A stretch of 64,000 bases of DNA. It comes from Candidatus Spongiisociaceae bacterium. Its GTDB lineage: Bacteria; Actinomycetota; Acidimicrobiia; Spongiisociales; Spongiisociaceae. This document shows, piece after piece, positions 29,231 to 45,818 of the stretch; positions within the stretch are counted from its first letter, which is position 1, and every line of letters begins with the position of its first letter. Location: NCBI GenBank assembly GCA_965202665.1, contig OZ241841.1, positions 1,248,001 to 1,312,000 on the forward strand, read 5' to 3'. Below the pieces are notes generated by a model. That model ran no database searches. It saw only the letters and a program-made list of their open reading frames with translations, and was not told the DNA's origin. The position numbers and the translations under genes are program-made.

Positions 29231-29436
29231 AAAACGGGGGCGGGTTTAGGTTGCGAGGATTTTCGTTCAGAGCGGAGAGGGCGGGCGAGGCTTGGATGCG
29301 TGGTTTTTATGACCTCACGGCAAGCAATCTGGCGGGGGCCAGGAAGATACATATTTCTCGCTTTTGGTGTGAAATGGTGGGGGATAATGCGGTATAGTTG
29401 ACAAAATGTTACATATATATCTCATATAGGAGGGTG

Positions 29437-29655
29437 ATGACTCCCAAGGAAATCGGAACCGAAATACGGCGCCAGCGGCAACGTTTGCGTCTCACCCAGG
29501 AGGATGCGGCCGACTTGGCGGAGGTGAACCGCCGGCTGATATCGGAAGTGGAGCGGGGACTGGCCTCCGTTTCCTTGCGCAACCTGATCGCCGTCTGCGA
29601 TGCGGTGGGGTTGGAACTTGCCTGCCGTCCCCGCCGGCCCGGAAGGCGGCTTTGA
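29437..29655 (+). CDS. hipB: HipB-like XRE antitoxin
   Basis: IGTEIRRQRQRLRLTQEDAADLAEVNRRLISEVERG HTH; AGGAGG RBS; TTGA overlap with hipA. Confidence 0.8.
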   Translation: MTPKEIGTEIRRQRQRLRLTQEDAADLAEVNRRLISEVERGLASVSLRNLIAVCDAVGLELACRPRRPGRRL

Positions 29656-30807
29656 CTTTGGACCCGGCGGAGTTCAAAAGGATGGAGGCGGCGGATGTTT
29701 TCTGCGGCGGCCAACGGGCGGGACAGTTGCGGCGCCGGGAAGAACACATTGAGTTCTCCTACCTCCCCGACTACTTGAGTATGGGGGGGCGGGCGGCGGC
29801 GGTCACCCTCCCCCTGCGGGAAGAACCCTATCGTTCGCCGGGCGGAATGGTTCCCGCCTTCTTCGCCGGGTTGCTGCCGGAAGGGGTGCGCCTGCAGGCG
29901 GTGATAGAAGCCGTCAACACCTCCCCCGACGATGAGTTGTCCCTGTTGCTGGCGGTGGGCGGAGATACGGTGGGGGCGGTGACGGTGGTTCCGGCGGGCG
30001 GGCAACCCCGGGATCCCGCCACGGAACCGGAGGCCGGCCACCCTGCCCGGCGTGCAGGAAAAACTGTCCGACGCCCTCATTTCTTTTCCGGTCAAGGCCG
30101 GAGAGGGACCCGCCATCTTGAAACTGTCCCCGGATCGCTATCCGCAACTGGTGGAAAACGAGGCTTTCTTCCTGAAAATGGCCGAGTCGTGCGGCCTGCG
30201 CGTCCCGCCGCACCGGATAGTGAAAGACCACTCCGGGGCTTCCGGCCTGCTGGTGGAACGGTTCGACCGGCTCCGAACGGCGGGGCGGGTGGTGCGCCTG
30301 CCCCAGGAGGACGCCTGCCAGTTGATCGGGCGGCGGCCGGTTGACAAATACCGTCTTTCCCTGCGGGAGGTGGCCGGAGCGGTGACGGAGGCGGTGGCGG
30401 CCCCGGCGGTCGCCATCCTGGAACTGACATTGTTGACCGCCTTCTCCTATCTGATCGGCAACGGGGATTGCCACGGCAAAAACGTAAGCGTGCGCTGGCT
30501 GCCGGAGGAGCGGATGGCGGAGGTGACCCCGATGTACGACCTGCTGTCCACCGCCCCCTATGGCTTGGACGACCGGCTGGCCCTGCCCATGGACGGACGC
30601 GACAACCGGATATGGGGGAAAGACTTGGTCCGGTTTGCCGAAACCTGGGAGATCCCGGCTCAGCTGGTGCGGCGCAAACTGGAGAACATGTTGCAACGGG
30701 CGGAGCCCTGGCCGGAACGGGTGGGGGAAATCGGGCTTGCCGCCTCCGCTGCGGAGCGGCTGGCCCGGACTATGCGCTCCCGGATGGAGGAACTAAAAAC
30801 CTTTTAG
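29652..30807 (+). pseudogene. hipA: HipA family Ser/Thr kinase toxin, frameshifted near 30030-30045
   Basis: N-domain (FFAGLLPEG, GGDTVGAV) in one frame; kinase core (TLPGVQEK, ILK, NEAFFL, VERFDR, QEDACQ, GNGDCHGKN, PMYDL) in the +1 frame. Confidence 0.75.
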
Positions 30808-35099: not shown

Positions 35100-35366
35100 C
35101 GTTTGGCTTTCCTTTCTGATGGTTTCATCTGTTTCCGGTTTATTATGCCTTGCCGGTGCGACAAACTACCAAACGCGCGGGTTGGACGCCTTGCTATTTT
35201 AGCATATCTGATAGTTATAACCTTAGTCAATCCGTATCATATTCCCCACTCGTTCGCTGTTTACAATCTGAGCAGTTGGATGGTGAACACAACTCCGGCT
35301 ACTCCGATGGCCGCTAGCAGGGCCAACACCATAATTACGGTGCCCGGACGCACAGCCGCAACCGAT

Positions 35367-36341
35367 TTAGGCCTCGGCGGGGGTTTCGCCTTCGGCGGCG
35401 TCCCCCTCCGGGTCGGCCAAACCGCAATCGACCACCGCCTCCGCCGGGTCCTGGCCGCCGAACACCACCCGCTCATAGAAGACCACCGCCGTCAGTTCCT
35501 CCTCGGTCAGGTTGTCGAAGGAGGGCATCTGCCCGCCCGCTCCCACCGGTTTGCCGGTGTCGCCGTAGGTGGTGCGGTTGGCCGCCTCGAAACCGGTGGT
35601 GCCCAGCCGCACCCATTCCAAATGGTCGACGCACATGGAGAAGGTGGACAGCACCGCTCCGGCCAAAGCGGGGCCGGTGCCGCCTCCGCCGCCCGCCCCA
35701 TGGCAGGATTCGCAACTGGAAGCGGCGGCGTATACGGCCTGCCCTTGGCCGACAACCGCTCGGACGTCCACTCCCCCCGCCCCGCCGGCGGCCGCGAATT
35801 CGGAGCCGTCGCAATTCTCCACCTCCCCAGTGAGCCGATCCACCGCCAACTGGCCGCCCTCCCCGCAAGTGGGCCCGCCCGCGAAACTGATCAGGTAGGT
35901 GAGGCCCACCAGCGGCACCACCGCGAACAACAAACCCAGCCAGCGGGGAACGGTCGCCGACACCCTTTCCAGAATTCCGGCGACGGGGGCGGTCACCACC
36001 GCCTCGTAGTCGCCCGCTTCGGCCAAACCCACCCGCTCCGGAGCCGGGGGCCCGGCCGCAACGGCCGCCGCAGCCGGGGCGGGGGCGGCGGGAACGGGGG
36101 CGGCGGACGGGGCCGGGGCGGACTCCGTTGCGGCGGCGGTCTCCTCGGGAGCGGGAGCGGATGGGGCTGGCGCCGACTCCGCCGGAGCGGGGCCGGCGGG
36201 GGCCGGGGCTCCGCCCGCCCACGCCGTCAAAATCTCCTCCACGGTCACCCCGGCGGCGGCCGCCCGGGCGGCGGCGGAACGTTCCACCAGGGATTCGGGG
36301 GCTTCCATAGCGGCCGCGGCGGCGGCCAGCAGTTCGCTCAT
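35367..36341 (-). CDS. membrane-anchored monoheme cytochrome c with conserved N-terminal module and Ala/Pro linker
   Basis: One TM helix, CESCH heme motif, GPAL, distal QMPSF Met; four additional Cys; ATGA overlap with the ccoO-like stop. Confidence 0.85.
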   Translation of the reverse strand: MSELLAAAAAAMEAPESLVERSAAARAAAAGVTVEEILTAWAGGAPAPAGPAPAESAPAPSAPAPEETAAATESAPAPSAAPVPAAPAPAAAAVAAGPPAPERVGLAEAGDYEAVVTAPVAGILERVSATVPRWLGLLFAVVPLVGLTYLISFAGGPTCGEGGQLAVDRLTGEVENCDGSEFAAAGGAGGVDVRAVVGQGQAVYAAASSCESCHGAGGGGGTGPALAGAVLSTFSMCVDHLEWVRLGTTGFEAANRTTYGDTGKPVGAGGQMPSFDNLTEEELTAVVFYERVVFGGQDPAEAVVDCGLADPEGDAAEGETPAEA

Positions 36342-37144
36342 TTCAGCTCCGTCAGATAGGCGGCCAGCGTCTCCAAGTCGCGGGCCGACAGGTAAGCGTA
36401 GGAGGGATGGAGGGCGCCGGGGGCGGCCTCGCCGGGATTAACCAGGAAATTAATTACGCCGGAGGCGGCGAGCGTCCCTTCCTCGGCCCCGTAACCGGGA
36501 CGGGCCCCCACTTTGGACAGGTCGGGCCCCAAGCGGCGAATCCCGAAACTGGCGTTTTTCAGGGAATCGGAGTAGGTCTCAGTCGCCGGACCCAGCCCTA
36601 CGTCGGCCAGCACCGGACGCACCAGCTGGGTGTGGCAGTACCAACATCCTTCCCGCAGATAGACGTCCCGTCCCGCCTCCGCCGCGCCGCTCAACACCGG
36701 ATCCCCCACCAAGTGGGTGAAGTCGCCTCCGGTGCGGGCCGGGATGGCCATGGCGACGATCACCGCCGTGGCAAACAAACCCAAAACCGCCAGCCAGACG
36801 GCCAACGGGCGGAAAGGCCGTCCCTCCAAGATGGGGGTGGCCCGGCGGCGGGCGGCCGGAGCGGGAGCGGCCGCCGGAGCGGACACGGCGACGGGCGCAG
36901 GAGGGGCGGGGGCGGCCGGGGCGGGAGCGGGGGAGGTGGCGGGTTCGGCGGACGGGGGCGGGGCGGAAACTTCTTTGGCGGGGGGGGCCGGGGCGGCGGC
37001 GGGCATGGGAGCGTCACCCGCCCAGGCCGCCAACACCTCCTCCGTGGTGGAACCGGCGGCGGCCGCCCGGGCCGCGGCCGAGCGTTCCACCAGATGCTCG
37101 GGAGCTTCCAGCGCGGCGGCCGCGGCCGCCAAACGATCACTCAT
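36338..37144 (-). CDS. cbb3-type oxidase subunit II (CcoO/FixO)-like cytochrome c, axial Met replaced by His
   Basis: GRDVYLREGCWYCHTQLVRP, RRLGPDLSKVGAR, NP...PGALHPSY. Start at MSDRLAAA (37144), not the 37480 ORF start. Confidence 0.85.
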   Translation of the reverse strand: MSDRLAAAAAALEAPEHLVERSAAARAAAAGSTTEEVLAAWAGDAPMPAAAPAPPAKEVSAPPPSAEPATSPAPAPAAPAPPAPVAVSAPAAAPAPAARRRATPILEGRPFRPLAVWLAVLGLFATAVIVAMAIPARTGGDFTHLVGDPVLSGAAEAGRDVYLREGCWYCHTQLVRPVLADVGLGPATETYSDSLKNASFGIRRLGPDLSKVGARPGYGAEEGTLAASGVINFLVNPGEAAPGALHPSYAYLSARDLETLAAYLTELK

Positions 37145-37484
37145 CCCCGCCTCCCCCGGCCCCGCCGCGTAGCCGGGACTCTGAGATAAACGGACGCCGC
37201 CGACCCGCCCTCGCAAAAGTTCTGCGCCGCCCGCCCCGGAAACCGCAACCGCCGAAACGTCGCTCACCCCCCGCCGCCCCGCTGTCACACCCAACACGGC
37301 CAACGCCCCCGCCGGATGCGGCACGGCACCGATGCCGCGCAACGCACGCACCGACAACCCGGCCCCCGGCGACCGGTCCCCGGCGACCGCCTCGCGCCGT
37401 CCGGAGCCCGGGAGCGCCCGCCCCGGAAACCGCAGGCGCCGAACGTTGCGCCGGGCTCGCCGCGGCCGCCGACGGATCACTCAT
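37121..37484. repeat. 340-nt duplicated/inserted segment between the ccoN-like and ccoO-like genes (possible coupled 115-aa ORF 37137-37484)
   Basis: CGCGGCCGCC-N4-GATCACTCAT at 37121-37144 and 37461-37484; identical 20-mer CGCCCGCCCCGGAAACCGCA at 37228-37247 and 37415-37434. Confidence 0.55.
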
Positions 37485-38922
37485 TCTCGTTTTCCCCAGC
37501 CGGCGCGTCCGGGGCGCCCACCGCCGCCAGCACTTCCACCGGGGCCGCCTCCCCCGACATATAGGTTCGCGCCACCGACCACGCCAGCAAGCCCACCCCC
37601 GCCGCCGCGGCGACGGCCGCTCCCGCCGCCAGCGTGTACAAAGGAGAGACCCCGTCCAGAATGCTCCCGAACCCGGCCCCCGCGTTGCGCAACGCCCCGG
37701 CCGCGTTGGCCCAGTTCCAAGACAGGCCGGTCACCAACCCGGCCACTAGCAACAGGCCGCAGGCAACCGCCCCGCCCCACAAAGTCAGGCGCACCCCCGC
37801 CCCCACCGTGCGGGTTGAAAACACTTCCCGGCCGGTCAGCCGGGGAAAAGCGTACAGGACAAACCCCAGGCCCAGCAACGGAACCGCCGCCAGAACCAAG
37901 CCCAGATCCAGCCCCTCCTGCCAAGCGGTCAGGCCCACCGCGGCCGACACCGACCGGAACCCGGACAGCCCGGTCAGCCCGGTGACCGCGGCGTACATCA
38001 TCACCCCCGCCATAGTGGCCAAAAGGGCGGGCCGGGCGCGGGACTCCTCCCAGCCTCCTTGCAAAGTCATCGTCAAATTGACCGCCACCGCCAGGGCGGA
38101 CAATCCCAAACCCATGGCGGCCACCGCCGCCACCGACTCCATCCAAGCGGGGGCGGGACCGCTCATGTAACGGGCCGGGGCGGCCAGCAACCCGGCCCCC
38201 GCCAAAGTCCAAAACCCGGCCCGGGCCAACCCGCCGGAAAACAGGGGGCGTCCGCTGTCGCGGGCCACCGTGAAATAGGCGGCCCCCAAAGCGGCGGCCG
38301 GGAAAGCCACCGTCAGCGCCCCGCCCGAAACCAAGCCGGCCTGCAAGAAAGTTCCGATTCCGGTCAGGCCGGGAAGGGAGCCGGTTACGTACAGGGCCGG
38401 ATACCACCACAGCGCGGCCAGCACGTAGTAGAGGGAAATGTAGGACCCGCTTTCAGTGCGACGGCGCCAGATATCGGCCGCCGACAGGGCCGCGAACAGC
38501 ATGCAGGCGGCCAGCCCCCAGTCGATCACCGGCGGGAATTCGGCGAGCTCCGTCCCGGACGGCCCCCGGAACATGACCAGAACCGACCCCGCCGCAACCA
38601 ACCCGGCGTAGACAAGGCCGTTGAGCAGGGCGGCCCGTTCCCAACGCAAAGGGGCCCCGGTCAGCCGGGGAATCAGATAGTAGGCGGCGGCCTGGGTGAG
38701 GACGCCGCCCGCCCCGTACACCAGCAGGTTGTAAGCGGCGGGGCGCAGGCGGCCGTAGGAAAGAGGAGCGGCGGCGTCGAAGAGGACGGGAACCGCCAGT
38801 TTGATCATCAGCAGGGCGGCCAAAGCGGCCCCCGCCGCTAGGAAAAGGCAGGCGATCAACATCAAACCGGCGGCCGCCCCCGCCGCGCCGATCGGATTGT
38901 CTCTGGCAGTGGCCTGCGTCAA
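37477..38922 (-). CDS. cbb3-type oxidase subunit I (CcoN)-like membrane protein lacking all metal-ligand histidines
   Basis: Colinear with CcoN: SYGRLRP, YYLIPRL, TELAEF, RPLFS..L...FW, NLTMTLQGGW, YAFPRLTGRE; ~12 hydrophobic segments; zero His in 481 aa. Confidence 0.85.
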   Translation of the reverse strand: MTQATARDNPIGAAGAAAGLMLIACLFLAAGAALAALLMIKLAVPVLFDAAAPLSYGRLRPAAYNLLVYGAGGVLTQAAAYYLIPRLTGAPLRWERAALLNGLVYAGLVAAGSVLVMFRGPSGTELAEFPPVIDWGLAACMLFAALSAADIWRRRTESGSYISLYYVLAALWWYPALYVTGSLPGLTGIGTFLQAGLVSGGALTVAFPAAALGAAYFTVARDSGRPLFSGGLARAGFWTLAGAGLLAAPARYMSGPAPAWMESVAAVAAMGLGLSALAVAVNLTMTLQGGWEESRARPALLATMAGVMMYAAVTGLTGLSGFRSVSAAVGLTAWQEGLDLGLVLAAVPLLGLGFVLYAFPRLTGREVFSTRTVGAGVRLTLWGGAVACGLLLVAGLVTGLSWNWANAAGALRNAGAGFGSILDGVSPLYTLAAGAAVAAAAGVGLLAWSVARTYMSGEAAPVEVLAAVGAPDAPAGENENE

Positions 38923-39137
38923 GCCCTACTCCTTACTCCGTTCTTCGTTCCGCCCCGGGCCGCCATTTGGAGCATACCGGGCGCCGCCCCGACCGCTTCC
39001 CCTTTCCGGTGCGCCGGGCGGTTAACATATCAGGGACGGACCCGGCGTCCTCTATTCTAATGACGCCGCCCCCGGACAAACAGCCTCCGGCGGCGGACGG
39101 GAGAAACGGGATGGCCGGTTTAGCCGCGGCGGGCTTT

Positions 39138-39155
39138 TATGCTATCAATAGCATA
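39138..39155. promoter_or_regulatory. inverted repeat in the divergent ccoN-like / Rieske-cyt b intergenic region
   Basis: TATGCTAT-CA-ATAGCATA, an AT-rich island in GC-rich DNA; provides a TATGCT -10-like hexamer on each strand. Confidence 0.6.
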
Positions 39156-39219
39156 GAACCGGCGGGGCGGTCCAACGCCGGCGAAGGCTGACCTAGCGGA
39201 GACGGAGACAAGCCACCAG

Positions 39220-39996
39220 ATGCTGCAACGCAAGCTTCGGCAAATAAGCGACCGGGAACGTTCCCGCCTCGGCTGGGCCGTTTTTACGCTGGGCTTGGCC
39301 GCCCTGATCGTCGGCATCTGGTTCAACCATTACTCCAATTTTCCTTCGGTGGAAACGGTGACCATCCCCACCGCCGAAGCGGCCAGCGTGCAGGCGGGCG
39401 ATGTCATCATCTACGATCGGCTACCGCATGTGGTGGACCGCACCCCGGTCATCGACCCCTCCCTGCCGCAGACCACGGTGGATCTGCGAATCGAGGTGGA
39501 CTATTTCGGATGGGTGCCCCGGGACTGCCTGATTGCGGGCGGGGACTGGTGCCTGCCCTGGTCCACCTTGGGACATTTGGTCGCCTTGGGGGGCAGCCAG
39601 CTGATGTTGCTGGGGCTGGTCCTGGCCCTGATCCTCGGACGGCGGATGACTTGGGCTTTGGCCTCCTTCGCCGCGTTTTTGGCAATGCTGGAGCTGGTGA
39701 TCTTGCTGGGCAACGTGGCCTCGGAATGGCTCAACTTGGCCCAAGGCCCGCTCAACTGGACCGAGCAGAACGACGCCTTCGTCATCTGGCCCCCCCTGGT
39801 GCTGGGCAACAACGTGGGGATCAGCTGGGGGGCCATCAAGGACTTTGTTTCCATTAACTACAATATGGGGGTTCTCACCTTTATTATTCTGTTCGCCCGG
39901 TTCGTCCAGAAACTGGGCGGCCCCGCCCCGGCGGAGGAGCCGGCCGAAGAGGCCGTTTCCCCCTACGGGCGGCCGTTGGTCAAAGGAGTCAAGTAG
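39220..39996 (+). CDS. polytopic membrane protein, first gene of the Rieske/cytochrome b operon
   Basis: About 4 TM segments, C-terminal SPYGRPLVKG; its stop abuts the ferredoxin ATG. Confidence 0.75.
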   Translation: MLQRKLRQISDRERSRLGWAVFTLGLAALIVGIWFNHYSNFPSVETVTIPTAEAASVQAGDVIIYDRLPHVVDRTPVIDPSLPQTTVDLRIEVDYFGWVPRDCLIAGGDWCLPWSTLGHLVALGGSQLMLLGLVLALILGRRMTWALASFAAFLAMLELVILLGNVASEWLNLAQGPLNWTEQNDAFVIWPPLVLGNNVGISWGAIKDFVSINYNMGVLTFIILFARFVQKLGGPAPAEEPAEEAVSPYGRPLVKGVK

Positions 39997-40452
39997 ATGG
40001 CCAAAACCCAGGTCTGGTTCGAGACGCCCCCCTTCCGGGACGACTACCAGCTGGCCATGGTGGACGCCGAATATGTGGACAGCCAGGTGCGGCCCAAGCA
40101 GTTCCTGCACATCAACCAGGCGGAATGCATTATCTGCGAGGGGTGCGTGGACATCTGCCCCTGGAAATGCATCCATTACCTTTCGTTGGACGCCATCGAC
40201 GAGGCGCACGGGGTGGAGCACCCGACGGACGGGGCGGACAACATGGGGTTTTTCGTGGTGGACGAATATGAGTGCACCCGTTGCCAACTGTGCATCGACC
40301 GTTGCCCCACCAACGTGATTTCCATCGGCAAATTCGAAGGGTCGGTCACCGACGCCGCCCTCAACGCCGGGTTGATCGACTCGGCGCCGTGGGACATCGA
40401 CACCGGGGCCCGCGATTTCAAAAACGGATACACCTACGGGATGAGATGGTGA
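39997..40452 (+). CDS. 2[4Fe-4S] ferredoxin
   Basis: [12 protein letters not shown] and [12 protein letters not shown]; no signal peptide. Confidence 0.92.
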
Positions 40453-40462
40453 GGAGGTTGAG

Positions 40463-41236
40463 ATGGCGAACGGCGACCGGGTGAGCCTGCGGGAGCGGAT
40501 CGCGTCCGCCGGCGAATCGTTCCGGGCCAGTCCGTTTTGGGAGTCCATGTTCCGGCCCGGTTCCCCTTTCAAGAAAGGTTACAGCGACAGCCCCCGCAAC
40601 CGCTCCTACGTGATAATGAACAACGTGCTCTACCACCTGCATCCGGTGAAGGTGAAGCGGCACGGGGTGCGCCTCTCCTACACGTTGTGCCTGGGAGGGT
40701 TGAGTTTTTTCCTGTTCATTCTGCTCACCATCACCGGCATTTTCCTGATGTTCTATTACCGCCCCACCTCCCCCGCCGCCTACATCGACGTGGAGGCCCT
40801 GTCAACTTCGGTGGCCTTTGGGTCGCTGGTGCGCAATTTGCACCGCTGGGGGGCGCATTTGATGGTGCTGACCGTGTTTCTGCATATGTCGCGCGTGTTC
40901 TACCATGGGGCTTACAAGCCGCCCCGGGAGTTCAACTGGGTGGTGGGGGTGGTGCTGTTGCTGCTCACCTTGTTGCTTTCTTTTACCGGCTATCTGTTGC
41001 CGTGGGATCAGTTGGCGCTGTGGGCGGTGACGGTGGGCACCAACATGGCCGGGTTTACGCCCCTGTTCGGCAACCAGGTCAAATTCGCCTTGCTGGGGGG
41101 GGTGGAGGTGACCGGCAACACCTTGCTCCGCTTCTACGTGTTACATGTGTTGTTCCTGCCGTTCATCATCGTCATTTTCATGGCCGTCCACTTCTGGCGG
41201 GTGCGCAAAGACGGCGGAATTTCGGGGCCGTTATGA
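40463..41236 (+). CDS. cytochrome b N-terminal subunit (cytochrome b6/QcrB-like)
   Basis: LCLGG (heme ci Cys), RNLHRWGAH...[25 protein letters not shown]...VHF, GISGPL end. Confidence 0.93.
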
Positions 41237-41344
41237 ACGGGCTGACCGCTCGTTGCGGCCGACCGGTGAGATTTGGCCGGGGGCCGGGTTTGTTACTCCT
41301 TTCTTCTCCCGGTCCCCGGCCATCCCCAAAACTGGGCGGAGGCG

Positions 41345-42256
41345 ATGGCGGAACTGCCTGAACATCTTCTTATCCGCTCAGCGGAGGCCCGGGCCAAGGC
41401 CCTGGGCCTGCCGGTGGATCAGGTGCTGGCTGAAATGAAAGGCGAAGCCCCGCCCTCAGACCCCCCGCCGGCGGAGGAAGCCCCGCCCTCGGAGGCCCCG
41501 GCGGCCGCTCCGCAGGCGGCGATGGAGAGCGCCCCGGAGGCTGAATCCGTCGCCGGGGAAACCCCGGCCGCGGAAACCCCCGCTCCCTCGGCGGCCGCCG
41601 TCGAGCCGGAGCCGGTCGCGGCGACCGCGGTAGCGGACCCTCCGCCTTCCCCTTCGGCGGAGGCGGGCAACGGGGCGTCGGCGGCTTCGGTGTCGCCCCG
41701 CCCGGTGGTTCCGCCCGCCGAGGTGCCGGAGGGGGTGCGTCCGCAACGTCTCTTGACCGTGGTGAAAGCCCGCGCCATCCAGCAGGTCAAAGCCACCCCC
41801 ACCGACAAGGTGAACACCTGGCCTCATCTGATGATCGCCGAGTTTTCGGCCCTGATGGTGATCACCGCCGGGCTGATAGTGTTGTCGGTGATACTGCAGG
41901 CCCCGTTGCTGGAGTTGGCCAACTTCAACGCCACTCCCAACCCGTCCAAAGCCCCCTGGTATTTCCTCGGTTTGCAGGAACTGCTTTCCTACTACGACCC
42001 GCAGATCGCCGGGGTGATCATTCCCGCCGTCACCGGCCTGGTCGGGTTCATGGCCATCCCCTATGTGGACCGCAACCCGTCCACCAATCCCGCCGACCGC
42101 AAATTCGCCATCATGCTGTTCACCTTGTTTCTGACCGGTTCCGCCACCCTCACCATTATCGGCACCCTGTTCCGCGGACCCGGGTTCAACTTCACCTACC
42201 CGTGGGCGGACGGCATCTGGTTCGATGACTTGAAAGACTGGGTGCATTTCGAATGA
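41345..42256 (+). CDS. cytochrome b C-terminal subunit (subunit IV/PetD-like) with N-terminal module and Ala/Pro linker
   Basis: TWPHL, APLLELAN..TPNPSKAPWYF (Qo PEWY-equivalent), IPYVDRNP; three TM helices; start MAELPEHL behind GGAGG. Confidence 0.9.
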   Translation: MAELPEHLLIRSAEARAKALGLPVDQVLAEMKGEAPPSDPPPAEEAPPSEAPAAAPQAAMESAPEAESVAGETPAAETPAPSAAAVEPEPVAATAVADPPPSPSAEAGNGASAASVSPRPVVPPAEVPEGVRPQRLLTVVKARAIQQVKATPTDKVNTWPHLMIAEFSALMVITAGLIVLSVILQAPLLELANFNATPNPSKAPWYFLGLQELLSYYDPQIAGVIIPAVTGLVGFMAIPYVDRNPSTNPADRKFAIMLFTLFLTGSATLTIIGTLFRGPGFNFTYPWADGIWFDDLKDWVHFE

Positions 42257-43176
42257 CCTCCGTCCAGCTTCTGGTTTTGGCGGTGGCCGCGGTGGCGGTG
42301 GCGGGGGTGCTGGGGGCTTTCGTAATCGCCTACCGGCGCACCACCGGCGCCTCCCCCTCTGAACGCGCCCGCCGCAAAGTGCGGGTGTCGCGGGAAACGC
42401 GCCGGGCGGACCGTTCCCGCTTGGAAGAACCGGTGGCCGTATCGGTCCCGGCCGAGGAGGAACCGGAGGCCGCCCCGGCTGAGGCTGAGTCTGAGGAGGA
42501 CGAGGAGGAGGCTGAAGCCGAGGCCGGGGAGCTGGAACCGGTTGCGGCCGTGGCGGCGGTGGAAGTGGCGGCGGTGGAAGAGTTGTCCCCGGAGGAGGCG
42601 GGCGTGAACCGGCGCCAGTTTTTCACCCGGGCGCTGGGCATCACCTTCGGGGCTTTCCTGGGTTTGAACGGCATCTCCTATCTGGCTTTTCTGTGGCCGC
42701 GCCTGTCGGGGGGGTTCGGTTCCGACATCGACGTGGGCGACATCACCGAACTGCGGGCCGAGGTTTTCCTGTCGGACGGCTCCATCCTGCCCAAGTTCGT
42801 CCCCGAAGCCCGGGCCTACATAGTGCCCTTCGCCGAAACCGATGTTTCCCGCTCCCAGTTCGAAGGTCTGCCGGTGGTAGTGGGGGGCTTGACCGCCCTT
42901 TTTCAGCGGTGCGTGCACCTGGGTTGCCGGGTGCCGTGGTGCGAAACCTCCCAGGGCTTTGAGTGCCCCTGCCACGGTTCCAAATACAACTTCGCGGGCG
43001 AATACGAAGCGGGTCCCGCCCCCCGCAACCTGGACCGGTTCGCTTTGGAAAATCAGGAGGGGCGGCTGATCGTCAAAACGGGGACCATTCTGCAGACTTC
43101 GCGGGCCATCGCCAAGACCGTCCGCTATCCGCAGGGGCCGTCCTGCATCGCCTTGGACGCGGGCACGGAGGCGTGA
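42253..43176 (+). CDS. Rieske [2Fe-2S] subunit of the bc/b6f-type complex
   Basis: CVHLGC and CPCHGSKY boxes, GPAPRNL; internal twin-Arg NRRQF before a TM helix. Confidence 0.93.
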   Translation: MTSVQLLVLAVAAVAVAGVLGAFVIAYRRTTGASPSERARRKVRVSRETRRADRSRLEEPVAVSVPAEEEPEAAPAEAESEEDEEEAEAEAGELEPVAAVAAVEVAAVEELSPEEAGVNRRQFFTRALGITFGAFLGLNGISYLAFLWPRLSGGFGSDIDVGDITELRAEVFLSDGSILPKFVPEARAYIVPFAETDVSRSQFEGLPVVVGGLTALFQRCVHLGCRVPWCETSQGFECPCHGSKYNFAGEYEAGPAPRNLDRFALENQEGRLIVKTGTILQTSRAIAKTVRYPQGPSCIALDAGTEA

Positions 43177-43179
43177 CCG

Positions 43180-44619
43180 GTGGCCACGTTGGTCGTCACC
43201 ATCGTCGCTTTAGGGGCCATCGGTTGGTTCGCCTACCTGGTCGGGTCGGGGTCGCGGCGGGACCGGCGGGATCCGGTTCCGTCCAACCTGTCGGCGGCCG
43301 CCACCGACGACGAACTGGAAACCACCCGCTTGGACCGCACCCTGATGGGGGCGGTGGTGGCGGCCGGGTTCCTCACGTTGGCCATGCCCATCTACTACCT
43401 GAGCGAGTTCGACCGCCAGGAGGGTTTCGTGGAAGAGTTCGCCGAAGCCTCTTTGGATCGGGGGCATGAGGTGTGGGAGGAGTTCGGGTGCGGGGACTGC
43501 CATGGGGCAACCGGGGGGGGCGGGGTGGCCGCCTACCTGGAGGAGCGCTCCAAAGTGAACGTGCCCGGCTGGGCGGCCCCCGCTTTGGACGACATTTTCT
43601 TCCGTTACGACCGGGACGAAGTACGGTTCTGGATCACTTACGGCCGGGCCAACTCTCCCATGCCCGCCTGGGGTTTGGAAGGGGGCGGGGCCCTCAACTC
43701 CCAGCAGATCGACGACCTGCTCAACTACATCGGGGCTTTCCAGATTCCGCAACAAGACGCCCTGCTCAGAATCGAGGGGACGGTGAACGGGGCCCGCAAT
43801 CGGCTGACCGGGGCCTCTGAGGCGGTGGGGCAGCAGATCGCCGACCAGCAGGCCTTGGTGGAGGAAATCACCAACTCCGGGGAAACTTCGGTGGCGGTGA
43901 CCGACATCGCCGACCGGGCCCGGGACGTCTTGGACGGGGCCGGGGACGGGATCGACACCGACGGGGACGGCCTGTCGGACAGGGCCGAATCCGATCTGAC
44001 CGCCATCGGGCGGGAAGCTCTGGAAACCGGTTTCCTGGCGGTGGATACCTCCTTCGATCCCCGCAACGTTGAAACCCTGATCGGGTCTTCGGATTCCCGT
44101 TCCGCCGCCCGCATGGTGAGCGACTTGGAGTCGCGGGCCACCTCTTTGACCATTACCTCCCAGAACCGGGAAGTCCTGCTGGAACAGGCCCGGTTTGGGC
44201 TGTCTTTCTTGGAGGAAGCGGCCGGGGCGGCCCGCTGGGAAGTGGATTTCCAAGAGGTGGCGGACGGATCCTTCGGCGGGGATCGGGAAAGGGCGGAGCG
44301 GGCCGCGGCCCTGTTCAACGGATACTGCGCCCGATGCCACACCGCCGGTTATTCGGCCGGGCCGGCTTTCCAACAGGTGCAGGCGTCCGGGGCGCTGGGG
44401 CCGTCGTTGCGGGCGGGGCGCTCCCGAACGCAGTTCCTGGCAGCGGAGGACATGGCCGAGTTTTTGCAGAAAGGTTCCGTTTCGGGTGAAGGTTACGGGG
44501 TGAACGGGGTGGGTTCGGGGCGGATGCCCGGCTTCGGACAGGTGCTGTCGGGGGAGGACATCGACCTGATCGTGGGATATCTGCGAGGGCCGACTTTGGA
44601 CGGGCGGGAGGATAACTGA
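43180..44619 (+). CDS. membrane-anchored diheme cytochrome c
   Basis: CGDCH...MPAWG and CARCH...MPGFG; two N-terminal TM helices; DTDGDGLSD motif in the inter-heme spacer. Confidence 0.9.
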   Translation: MATLVVTIVALGAIGWFAYLVGSGSRRDRRDPVPSNLSAAATDDELETTRLDRTLMGAVVAAGFLTLAMPIYYLSEFDRQEGFVEEFAEASLDRGHEVWEEFGCGDCHGATGGGGVAAYLEERSKVNVPGWAAPALDDIFFRYDRDEVRFWITYGRANSPMPAWGLEGGGALNSQQIDDLLNYIGAFQIPQQDALLRIEGTVNGARNRLTGASEAVGQQIADQQALVEEITNSGETSVAVTDIADRARDVLDGAGDGIDTDGDGLSDRAESDLTAIGREALETGFLAVDTSFDPRNVETLIGSSDSRSAARMVSDLESRATSLTITSQNREVLLEQARFGLSFLEEAAGAARWEVDFQEVADGSFGGDRERAERAAALFNGYCARCHTAGYSAGPAFQQVQASGALGPSLRAGRSRTQFLAAEDMAEFLQKGSVSGEGYGVNGVGSGRMPGFGQVLSGEDIDLIVGYLRGPTLDGREDN

Positions 44620-44969
44620 TGCGGGAGTTGTTCCGGACGATTCTTTCCCAGAACCTGCTGTTCACCGGGATCGTGTTGACGGCGGCGGCGGTGCTGGTGT
44701 TTTTCGGAACCATATACCTGTTGAACCACACCAACCTGGGCCGCCGGTTGGCGGTGCTGATGCTGGGAGCGGGAATTTTCGGATGGACCACCATCAACTC
44801 CATCCTGTTCGTGCTCTACGCGCCGCGGGGCCCGCGACCGGTGGATTTCGAGGGGTTGAACGCCTTTGAGATCCGGATCATCCCCGGGGCGTTCGCGGCC
44901 GGCTCCGCCATTTTGTTCGCCATGTTCCTAGTGGCCCTGCACCGCTACGAACGGGACCAAGAACGTTAA
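44619..44969 (+). CDS. small membrane protein, last gene of the bc operon
   Basis: Three hydrophobic segments; TGATG overlap with the cytochrome c stop. Confidence 0.75.
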   Translation: MRELFRTILSQNLLFTGIVLTAAAVLVFFGTIYLLNHTNLGRRLAVLMLGAGIFGWTTINSILFVLYAPRGPRPVDFEGLNAFEIRIIPGAFAAGSAILFAMFLVALHRYERDQER

Positions 44970-45006: not shown

Positions 45007-45324
45007 ATGAACGAAGGAACTGACTGGCTGGACGAGGTCAGGGGGCAACGATACCAGTGGACCAGGCTGGGGGAGGCTTGGCTGGAAACGGAGTTGCGGC
45101 CGGGGTTGCCGTGCCGGATAATCTTGGGAGAGGCGGAAGGGGCTCCGGTTCTGTATGCGGCCATCGGCGTCAACGGGACCGCCCGTTACTGGCAGTGGGC
45201 GACGCTGGACGAAGCCGGGCGGCCCCTGCCCCGAAGGCGGGCCCTGGAACGGCTGTGGAAAGTCATAGAGTTGGCCCAGATTTCTTCAAAAAGCGAAGTT
45301 GAACACAAACTACGCGATGGATGA
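45007..45324 (+). CDS. hypothetical protein (Trp-rich)
   Basis: 105-aa ORF with GGGAG RBS; ATGA-coupled to the next gene. Confidence 0.55.
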   Translation: MNEGTDWLDEVRGQRYQWTRLGEAWLETELRPGLPCRIILGEAEGAPVLYAAIGVNGTARYWQWATLDEAGRPLPRRRALERLWKVIELAQISSKSEVEHKLRDG

Positions 45325-45818
45325 GGCGGACCGATTACTTCCTCATCGCCTCCCCCCGGGAGGACGCCCGGCGGGCGGCGGAACAGGTTCCAGCCCCTTA
45401 TAACGACCTCCAATCTCTGCAAGAGGCTTTGTACGAACTGTGCCTGAACGTGCAACAGTGGGCGGAGGCCCCGGGGTTCATCGCCGTGGAGGAAGATGAC
45501 CTGCATCGCATTATCACCGTCCGCGACGAGGGGGCGGGGATTCCGACCACTATCAGAAAGGCCTTCCCCGCCAACCAGGCGGCGGTGGCCAAAGCCCTAA
45601 GCCCGGGCGAAACCTCGTCCGGCGGGCAACGGCGGAGAAAGGGGCTGGCCGGCGCCATCGGCTTGTCCGCCCGCGGGTTTATCGTCTACCTGGAGACGGA
45701 GGATGTAGCGGCCTGGGCGGAGGGGGGAAACACCATTTTCGCTTACAAAGGCGGTCGGGCGGTGACCGGAACCCGCATACAGATCATCTATCCGACGGAC
45801 CGCCCTCCGTCCGCTTGA
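45321..45818 (+). CDS. stand-alone GHKL/HATPase_c-like ATP-binding domain protein
   Basis: N-box ELCLNV, G1 VRDEGAGI, GETSS...RKGL, terminal GTRIQI. Confidence 0.65.
   Translation: MRRTDYFLIASPREDARRAAEQVPAPYNDLQSLQEALYELCLNVQQWAEAPGFIAVEEDDLHRIITVRDEGAGIPTTIRKAFPANQAAVAKALSPGETSSGGQRRRKGLAGAIGLSARGFIVYLETEDVAAWAEGGNTIFAYKGGRAVTGTRIQIIYPTDRPPSA

Follow-up and report, generated by a model that had tools for sequence, protein, structure and literature searches.

A stretch of 64,000 nucleotides from the genome of Candidatus Spongiisociaceae bacterium (positions 1,248,001–1,312,000 of contig OZ241841.1, here C1; referred to below as the window) carries two divergent operons, in which relatives of cbb3 oxidase subunits lie head-to-head with a Rieske/cytochrome b complex. 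The host genome is a single contig of 2.77 Mb with a completeness of 94%. The locus had been described in an earlier note made from the sequence alone, and the gene order and coordinates given there held on re-annotation. The left operon (reverse strand) encodes a CcoN-like protein, a CcoO-like protein and a monoheme cytochrome c. The right operon (forward strand) runs from a membrane protein and a 2x[4Fe-4S] ferredoxin through a short cytochrome b, subunit IV, a Rieske protein and a diheme cytochrome c to a small membrane protein. An N-terminal module of about 45 amino acids (aa) is shared between subunits of both operons. The features are listed below in window coordinates.

37477..38922, reverse strand: CcoN-like protein, a cofactor-less CcoN homologue of 481 aa with a 12-helix membrane fold (Pfam COX1, TIGR00780, ligand map, structure model)
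36338..37144, reverse strand: CcoO-like monoheme cytochrome c with the module, a Pro/Ala linker, one transmembrane helix and CWYCH; the true start is at 37144
35367..36341, reverse strand: monoheme cytochrome c anchored in the membrane and distinct from CcoP, with the motifs CESCH and MPSF, the module and a linker
36207..36341, reverse strand: module copy 1 (about 45 aa), on the monoheme cytochrome c (profile search)
37010..37144, reverse strand: module copy 2, on CcoO (profile search)
41345..41452, forward strand: module copy 3, on subunit IV (profile search)
39138..39155, no strand: 8-2-8 palindrome of 18 bp (sequence)
39220..39996, forward strand: first gene of the bc operon, encoding a conserved membrane protein that belongs to no known family
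39997..40452, forward strand: 2x[4Fe-4S] ferredoxin without a transmembrane helix (motifs)
40463..41236, forward strand: short cytochrome b (b6 type), 257 aa, with a CLGG motif (ExtP model, motifs)
41345..42256, forward strand: subunit IV, which carries the module, a linker and the APWY Qo motif (motifs)
42253..43176, forward strand: Rieske protein (motifs)
43180..44619, forward strand: diheme cytochrome c with two membrane helices and a long insert between the hemes (motifs)
44619..44969, forward strand: conserved small membrane protein, likewise of no known family

The CcoN-like protein contains no His in its 481 aa, as the earlier note had seen. When it was aligned to solved CcoN chains, their six His and the Tyr corresponded to A, G, A, R, L, L and G, respectively. 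We take the six His to be the ligands of heme b, heme b3 and CuB, and the Tyr to be the cross-linked Tyr of helix VII. The protein scored 91 bits with Pfam COX1 and 97 bits with TIGR00780 (cut-off 583). The 12-helix subunit I fold was kept: the predicted structure (predicted local distance difference test 93.6, predicted template modelling score 0.93) matched 3MK7 and 8SMR with a Z of 48.6 and a root-mean-square deviation of 2.2 Å over 451–454 residues. Phylogenetically, it grouped with the C family, away from two outgroup rows resembling nitric oxide reductases (NORs). NORs (cNOR, qNOR, gNOR and others) have His-ligated hemes and a non-heme metal site, whereas the CcoN-like protein has no His at all. 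With all six His and the Tyr gone, the protein, as judged from its sequence, cannot be an O2 reductase, in agreement with the earlier proposal that it no longer reduces O2. Databases nevertheless label these dead proteins as cbb3 oxidase subunit I.

The loss extends to the relatives. In a larger tree, the dead clade comprised 137 rows, with no His in 126, one in nine and two in two, and the Tyr in none; at the six ligand sites, a His was left in 2, 1, 1, 0, 1 and 8 rows. Conservation within this clade fell mostly on Gly, Pro, Trp and Arg residues common to intact CcoN. Positions without variation in intact CcoN have drifted (E122 26%, R59 40%, N293 58%), and two former His sites are held by small residues (Ala at H60 in 88 of 137 rows; Ala, Ser or Gly at H207 in 94 of 137). 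Since conservation was mainly structural and no new invariant polar residue was found among the 137 rows, the pattern is that of a scaffold rather than that of a new catalyst.

Compared with the related locus L004, the ratio of nonsynonymous to synonymous substitution rates (dN/dS) was 0.21 for the ccoN-like gene, 0.21 for ccoO, 0.19 for subunit IV, 0.05 for cytochrome b and 0.24 for dnaJ. The ccoN-like gene is thus under purifying selection, at a level like that of dnaJ and subunit IV. The ccoN-like gene was among the faster-evolving genes of the locus, with a dN of 0.116 against 0.018 for cytochrome b. The arrangement is not unique to the host. CcoN-like matches were found in 139 of 401 Acidimicrobiia genomes, comprising 102 of 119 from the same order, 34 of 36 from family f13, one each from families f14 and f17, and the host, and the arrangement also recurs in other families of the phylum. 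The f13 genomes are of 0.9–1.1 Mb with low GC, keep the whole locus (L065–L068, L076) and appear to resemble Ca. Actinomarinales. Cytochrome b was head-to-head with the ccoN-like gene in all 43 loci examined, with extra genes between them in three and no ferredoxin match in one. Searching 401 genomes of the phylum with a profile gave matches in 31. Of these, 17 (families f63, f68, f70 and f114) scored like the dead form, 13 of which were checked and contained 0–2 His, and five others were intact C-family proteins with six His. From a search of 1.8 billion proteins, the best 150 representatives were used; after 11 short ones were dropped, the remaining 139 contained no His (82), one (12), two (10), four (1), five (4) or six (30). 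In an IQ-TREE phylogeny of 53 rows, the dead Actinomycetota forms, including f13, were placed in one clade with a Shimodaira–Hasegawa approximate likelihood ratio test (SH-aLRT) value of 100, without bootstrap. A basal placement of the low-GC f13 rows by FastTree was rejected as a long-branch effect, since IQ-TREE put them inside the dead clade.

Among the 17 same-order genomes without the CcoN-like protein, 14 also had no orthologous cytochrome b, and in the remaining three cytochrome b lay on a 3.3-kb contig or was present as a fragment. The CcoN-like protein is co-inherited with the bc operon. It is a real, ancient, selected and cofactor-free derivative of cbb3 subunit I.

The neighbouring CcoO-like protein exceeded the FixO cut-off (48.6 against 29.6 bits) and contained the heme motif CWYCH. 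It has HPSY where intact relatives have MPS, which puts His rather than Met at the distal-ligand position, and the His/His CcoO of the earlier note stands for this genome. As a trait defining the family, His/His ligation was rejected because the distal ligand, read by eye from 70 sequences in a table selected for CxxCH, varied by lineage: His in f1, f2, f6 and f13, Met in f3, f4, f8, f70 and f114, and either Met or Gln in f5, with f68 mixed. This variation weakens explanations built on His/His ligation and leaves room for a purely structural role. The CcoN-like protein was fused to CcoO in families f3, f4, f8 and f14. The third gene encodes a monoheme cytochrome c, not CcoP (TIGR00782, 19 bits against 180). 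In 12 of 13 loci from other orders, this divergently oriented cytochrome c occurred in place of ccoNO. Conversely, none of the 15 CcoN-like-positive genomes of f68 (nine) and f70 (six) had a match to the monoheme cytochrome c. As carriers, the CcoN-like/CcoO pair and the monoheme cytochrome c are therefore partly complementary across genomes. Cytochrome c maturation genes (res or ccm) lay between the ccoN-like gene and the bc operon in f14, f17, f68 and f70. A motif scan of the genome, which was filtered and missed CcoO itself, returned no further clear c-type cytochrome. No conserved protein was found in the gap of about 330 bp between the ccoN-like gene and ccoO (37145–37476). This gap opens with a degenerate copy of the ccoO 5' end, and L004 has three such copies.

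The right operon is identified by its motifs as encoding a split Rieske/cytochrome b complex of the APWY type. Cytochrome b, the only match to its family in the genome, scored 306 bits with the ExtP model (cut-off 290). It carries the motif YTLCLGGL at residue 73, which contains the CxGG signature; the heme ci Cys reported by the earlier note is thus present, within CLGG. Cytochrome b and subunit IV are split, and the latter carries APWY. An actinobacterial bcc complex was rejected as the identity on the basis of the NF050120 score (108 bits against a cut-off of 500), the split cytochrome b of 257 aa, and APWY in place of PDWY. The same short cytochrome b with CxGG and a subunit IV with APWY occur in the APWY-clade complexes (PMC4122944, as far as accessible; ExtP/ExtQ NCBIfam models); that paper lists a split cytochrome b from the acidimicrobiian Ilumatobacter. 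In contrast to that clade, the complex described here holds the only cytochrome b of its genome, and the ferredoxin, the two small membrane proteins, the module and the operon of the CcoN-like protein are not mentioned in the accessible text of PMC4122944. The long insert of the diheme cytochrome c contains an acidic DGDG motif (a weak TSP3_bac match) and is absent from shorter forms in L069 and L070.

The earlier note had seen no functional terminal oxidase, which is correct for the window but is an effect of its edge. An operon of coxB, coxA, coxC, coxD and ctaG lies at C1:1371840–1376946, about 60 kb past the window end. CoxA has the motifs HPEVY, HH and HFH, and CoxB has the CuA motif and CxxCH; with all motifs present, the host has an intact caa3 oxidase. 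No bd oxidase, no second COX2/NosZ domain (one COX2 domain was present) and no PF07732 multicopper domain were found in the host genome. The suggestion that electrons are routed to another acceptor does not hold in this genome, where caa3 is the only cytochrome c-linked terminal reductase found. Since the host has only one cytochrome b complex and caa3 as the only such enzyme found, forward electron flow is needed here. Across the 141 CcoN-like-positive genomes, which include 20 of 34 f13 positives, 138 matched COX1 at E ≤1e-45 (scored without a check of the ligands), five of them with a split or partial match, and related genomes are not independent. A match at the same threshold was present in 8 of 17 same-order genomes without the CcoN-like protein.

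Gene context ties the CcoN-like protein to caa3. The module on CcoO, cytochrome c and subunit IV was recovered from the genome by profile search at E 1e-16 to 1e-17, with the next unrelated match at E 0.16. The claim of a module shared by three subunits was thereby confirmed, and it required extension, as a fourth carrier exists outside the window. This is a 387-aa membrane protein of no known family at C1:1367150–1368313 (L143:3151–4314), near the caa3 operon. Every copy precedes a Pro/Ala linker and then the first membrane helix, and the module may lie on the cytoplasmic side. Of 43 genomes tested, 33 contained it, frequently as tandem copies in f3, f4, f6 and f8; other orders have a short form. 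There was no match between the window copy and Pfam (best family member E 0.0085), and the best match in PDB had E 0.4. The shared module plausibly tethers the parts together. In 17 of 18 genomes having a carrier outside the locus, this carrier was located 2.2–7.1 kb from coxA, and in two f13 loci that were read it directly followed ctaG on the same strand. The C-terminal three-helix domain of the fourth carrier is homologous to the membrane part of a three-helix-cupredoxin protein (hhalign 95%, E 2.6e-8; six membrane proteins used as controls all gave ≤1%), the gene for which is the last of the caa3 operon in four genomes from other families (G408, G503, G554 and G679). In genome G012 (C13; L070, L146), the CcoN-like protein is itself fused to a three-helix-cupredoxin domain, as in P0083 and P0109. 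In G012, res, the ccoN-like gene, coxB, coxA, coxC, coxD, ctaG, ccoO and the cytochrome c gene are arranged in this order along a single strand, and the bc operon lies head-to-head to them. The module carrier near coxA together with this fusion and operon links the CcoN-like protein to caa3 at the level of gene context. A replacement of CcoO by the cupredoxin in G012 was rejected because ccoO is present after ctaG.

Two further observations concern the module. In genomes with neither a CcoN-like nor a COX1 match (G077:C99, L162; G125:C24), it is carried by the gene after a more distant cytochrome b. For the fourth protein, the ESM Atlas contained one Actinomycetota cluster at 0.86, which is a lead only.

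A second dead CcoN was found outside the phylum. A separate degenerate CcoN clade, whose members are named Verrucomicrobiota, was nested within intact C-family rows of the tree. With one member as the query, 80 metagenome loci were fetched (L170–L249), of which 78 were scored: 65 had no His, six had one and seven had all six. In the longer loci, the CcoN gene followed an alternative complex III (ACIII) operon and preceded ccoO and a cytochrome c gene, in both intact and dead forms. As judged from the tree, this ligand loss is independent of that in Actinomycetota. That the gene at this position can be either intact or dead supports the idea of a cbb3 that was docked on complex III and kept after losing its chemistry. 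The ACIII-linked cbb3 genes of Verrucomicrobiota (PMC6688271, as far as accessible) likewise place ccoN, ccoO and a cytochrome c gene after the complex III genes. They differ from the present locus in the type of complex III (ACIII) and in their separate origin on the tree, and they are regarded in that paper as encoding a working oxidase.

We favour, with a probability of about 0.57, the reading that the CcoN-like protein serves as a scaffold and c-heme relay between the APWY complex III and caa3. The evidence comprises the ligand loss, fold, selection, synteny, co-occurrence, shared module and gene fusions. The 12-helix fold, devoid of ligands for heme or copper, would hold CcoO and the second cytochrome c as a membrane scaffold. 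Electrons would pass from menaquinol to the Rieske protein, the diheme cytochrome c, and CcoO and/or the monoheme cytochrome c, and from there through the cytochrome c domain and CuA of caa3 to O2. The module, on flexible linkers of subunit IV, CcoO, cytochrome c and the caa3-locus membrane protein, would tether one assembly. Such an arrangement may have originated from a cbb3 docked to complex III that lost its catalytic site once an A-type oxidase did the chemistry, and that was kept for its contacts. A broader picture is more tentative, and as a whole we would not bet on it: a three-part respiratory supercomplex of undescribed architecture, made of APWY complex, cofactor-free cbb3 relic and caa3 and held by a new 45-residue tether that one subunit of each part carries, that would be ancestral in part of Actinomycetota and kept in 1-Mb marine genomes, with a dead cbb3 entrenched a second time on ACIII.

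Several observations weigh against the relay. A relay heme should be more constrained than the variable distal ligand (His, Met, Gln) of CcoO indicates, and a CcoO relative of genome G490 (L125) has no CxxCH. His/His ligation would lower the potential of the heme, a poor fit between the Rieske centre and caa3. In other orders, the bc operon occurred without the CcoN-like protein in 19 of 21 genomes (cytochrome b identity 72–79%), G403 (L113) carries a lone CcoN relative without ccoO, and G003 had no match for either the CcoN-like protein or the cytochrome c. With respect to caa3, the fourth module protein lies 177 kb from coxA in G345, no off-locus module copy was found in ten module-bearing f3, f4 and f8 genomes, and a pairwise comparison of the fourth protein with the G012 fusion alone gave a weak match (12%, E 0.0025). 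Additionally, three CcoN-like-positive genomes (G141, G288 and G372) had no strong COX1 match. Of these, the G288 assembly consists of 170 contigs. G141 (L072, L163; four contigs, 95% complete) keeps the module and has NosZ and a NirK-like gene, and no heme-copper or bd oxidase was found in it. G372 has a bd oxidase and a NirK-like gene (L167:6139–7779) between the ccoN-like gene and that of cytochrome b. In some relatives, but not in the present genome, the module is thus probably able to serve other periplasmic acceptors.

A purely structural or assembly role, in which the CcoN-like protein and CcoO stabilise the bc complex or caa3 or help to mature their c-type subunits while the heme carries little flux, is unlikely but deserves serious consideration. 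It would account for the variable distal ligand, including Gln, for the CcoO without CxxCH, for the maturation genes found beside the bc operon in four families and for the structural kind of conservation in the CcoN-like protein. It is countered by the CxxCH in all 70 tabulated CcoO sequences (with the selection of that table for CxxCH in mind), by other orders that make the same cytochrome b and cytochromes c without the CcoN-like protein, and by f68 and f70, where CcoO is likely the carrier given the lack of a match to the monoheme cytochrome c. We regard as rather improbable the idea of the earlier note that the locus serves another acceptor or brings in electrons, which would then come from an outside donor and drive the APWY complex in reverse. 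Reverse operation has been proposed for APWY complexes, which were listed as uncharacterised in 2014 (PMC4122944, as far as accessible), and this also speaks against the relay. The His/His CcoO of f1, f2, f6 and f13, the ferredoxin encoded in the operon, the NosZ and NirK-like gene of G141 and the NirK-like gene of G372 also point this way. Forward flow to caa3 is favoured over it by the lack of any other cytochrome b complex or cytochrome c-linked terminal enzyme found in the host, by the strong COX1 match in 138 of 141 carriers, and by the module and gene fusion that lead to the caa3 locus.

A new role for the emptied heme cavities, such as transport, ligand binding or sensing, is quite improbable. 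A cavity may remain behind the small residues at the H60 and H207 sites, and a 12-helix anchor is not needed for a single-helix cytochrome, but no invariant polar residue is special to the dead clade, in which E122, R59 and N293 drifted. As for simple decay of a former cbb3 oxidase, the high dN of the ccoN-like gene relative to cytochrome b is what decay would predict. The open frame, the dN/dS of 0.21, the single clade with an SH-aLRT of 100 and the presence in 139 of 401 genomes of the class, including 34 of 36 of about 1 Mb, stand against it. The selection and distribution data thus refute decay, which we consider to have next to no chance of being correct.

The proposed scaffold and relay has partial counterparts among known systems. 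The cbb3 CcoNOP structures (3MK7; the bc1-cbb3 supercomplex of P. aeruginosa, 8SMR, PMC10556555, as far as accessible) share the 12-helix subunit I with CcoO adjacent or fused, and in that supercomplex cytochrome c1 contacts CcoN, CcoO and CcoP. Unlike cbb3, the present system has no ligands for heme b, heme b3 or CuB and no Tyr in subunit I, its CcoO has His instead of Met, its third gene encodes a monoheme cytochrome c rather than CcoP, and it carries a 45-residue module without a convincing Pfam or PDB match. In the obligate actinobacterial bcc-aa3 supercomplex (PMC8361435, as far as accessible), which is also found in Gram-positive bacteria without soluble cytochrome c, a diheme cytochrome c likewise lies next to the Rieske protein and cytochrome b. 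Its cytochrome b, however, is the long QcrB with PDWY (PMC4122944), whereas here cytochrome b is split, the oxidase is caa3 and there are extra c-type carriers. Other O2-reductase descendants without the Tyr are gNOR, eNOR, sNOR, nNOR and NOD (PMC11214002, in the accessible text). These altered-site families keep metal ligands, gNOR being described as the first family to replace one active-site His, while the CcoN-like protein has lost all six. No description of a His-less CcoN family was found in the literature searched, in which subscription journals were mostly uncovered and supplements not covered, and the accessible main text of PMC12008989 contains no mention of cbb3 or cco.

The palindrome between the operons is real and is unique in the genome at up to three mismatches. 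As a conserved shared operator, the role implied by the earlier description, it was rejected, because among 22 related intergenic regions only that of L004 had a similar site, and there the right arm was disrupted. Relatives retain only the left half; in L037 and L038, all that is left is a TG-n-(TT/CA)CAAT core. The palindrome is likely part of the rightward promoter. A sigma-70 scan detected no promoter site, and a Rex-box pattern had no match in the intergenic region of the window. Downstream of the bc operon, Rex was confirmed and nuo-like open reading frames (ORFs) run to approximately 61250, as reported. Rex does not follow directly, since two further ORFs at 45007–45818 intervene, one of them with a weak HATPase_c match. 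A small one-helix ORF after the cytochrome c gene (35261–35476) had matches in L004, L038 and L049. At 29398–30807, what we take to be a small helix-turn-helix gene precedes a HipA-like kinase encoded in two overlapping frames. Elsewhere in the genome, at C1:2009189–2010451 (L165), a molybdopterin enzyme contains one in-frame TGA, possibly for selenocysteine.

Because these proteins carry cbb3 subunit I labels in databases, genomes may be wrongly scored as those of high-affinity O2 respirers. For the genomes of about 1 Mb that appear to resemble Ca. Actinomarinales, in which complex III was reported missing (PMC7771536, as far as accessible), the operon supplies a complex III. It also provides a testable context for the APWY complexes, which were uncharacterised as of 2014 (PMC4122944). 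The heme-copper superfamily is extended to a fully metal-free member kept across several Actinomycetota families. This suggests how a catalytic subunit can come to be fixed in a respiratory chain as a structural component, which seems to have happened twice independently.

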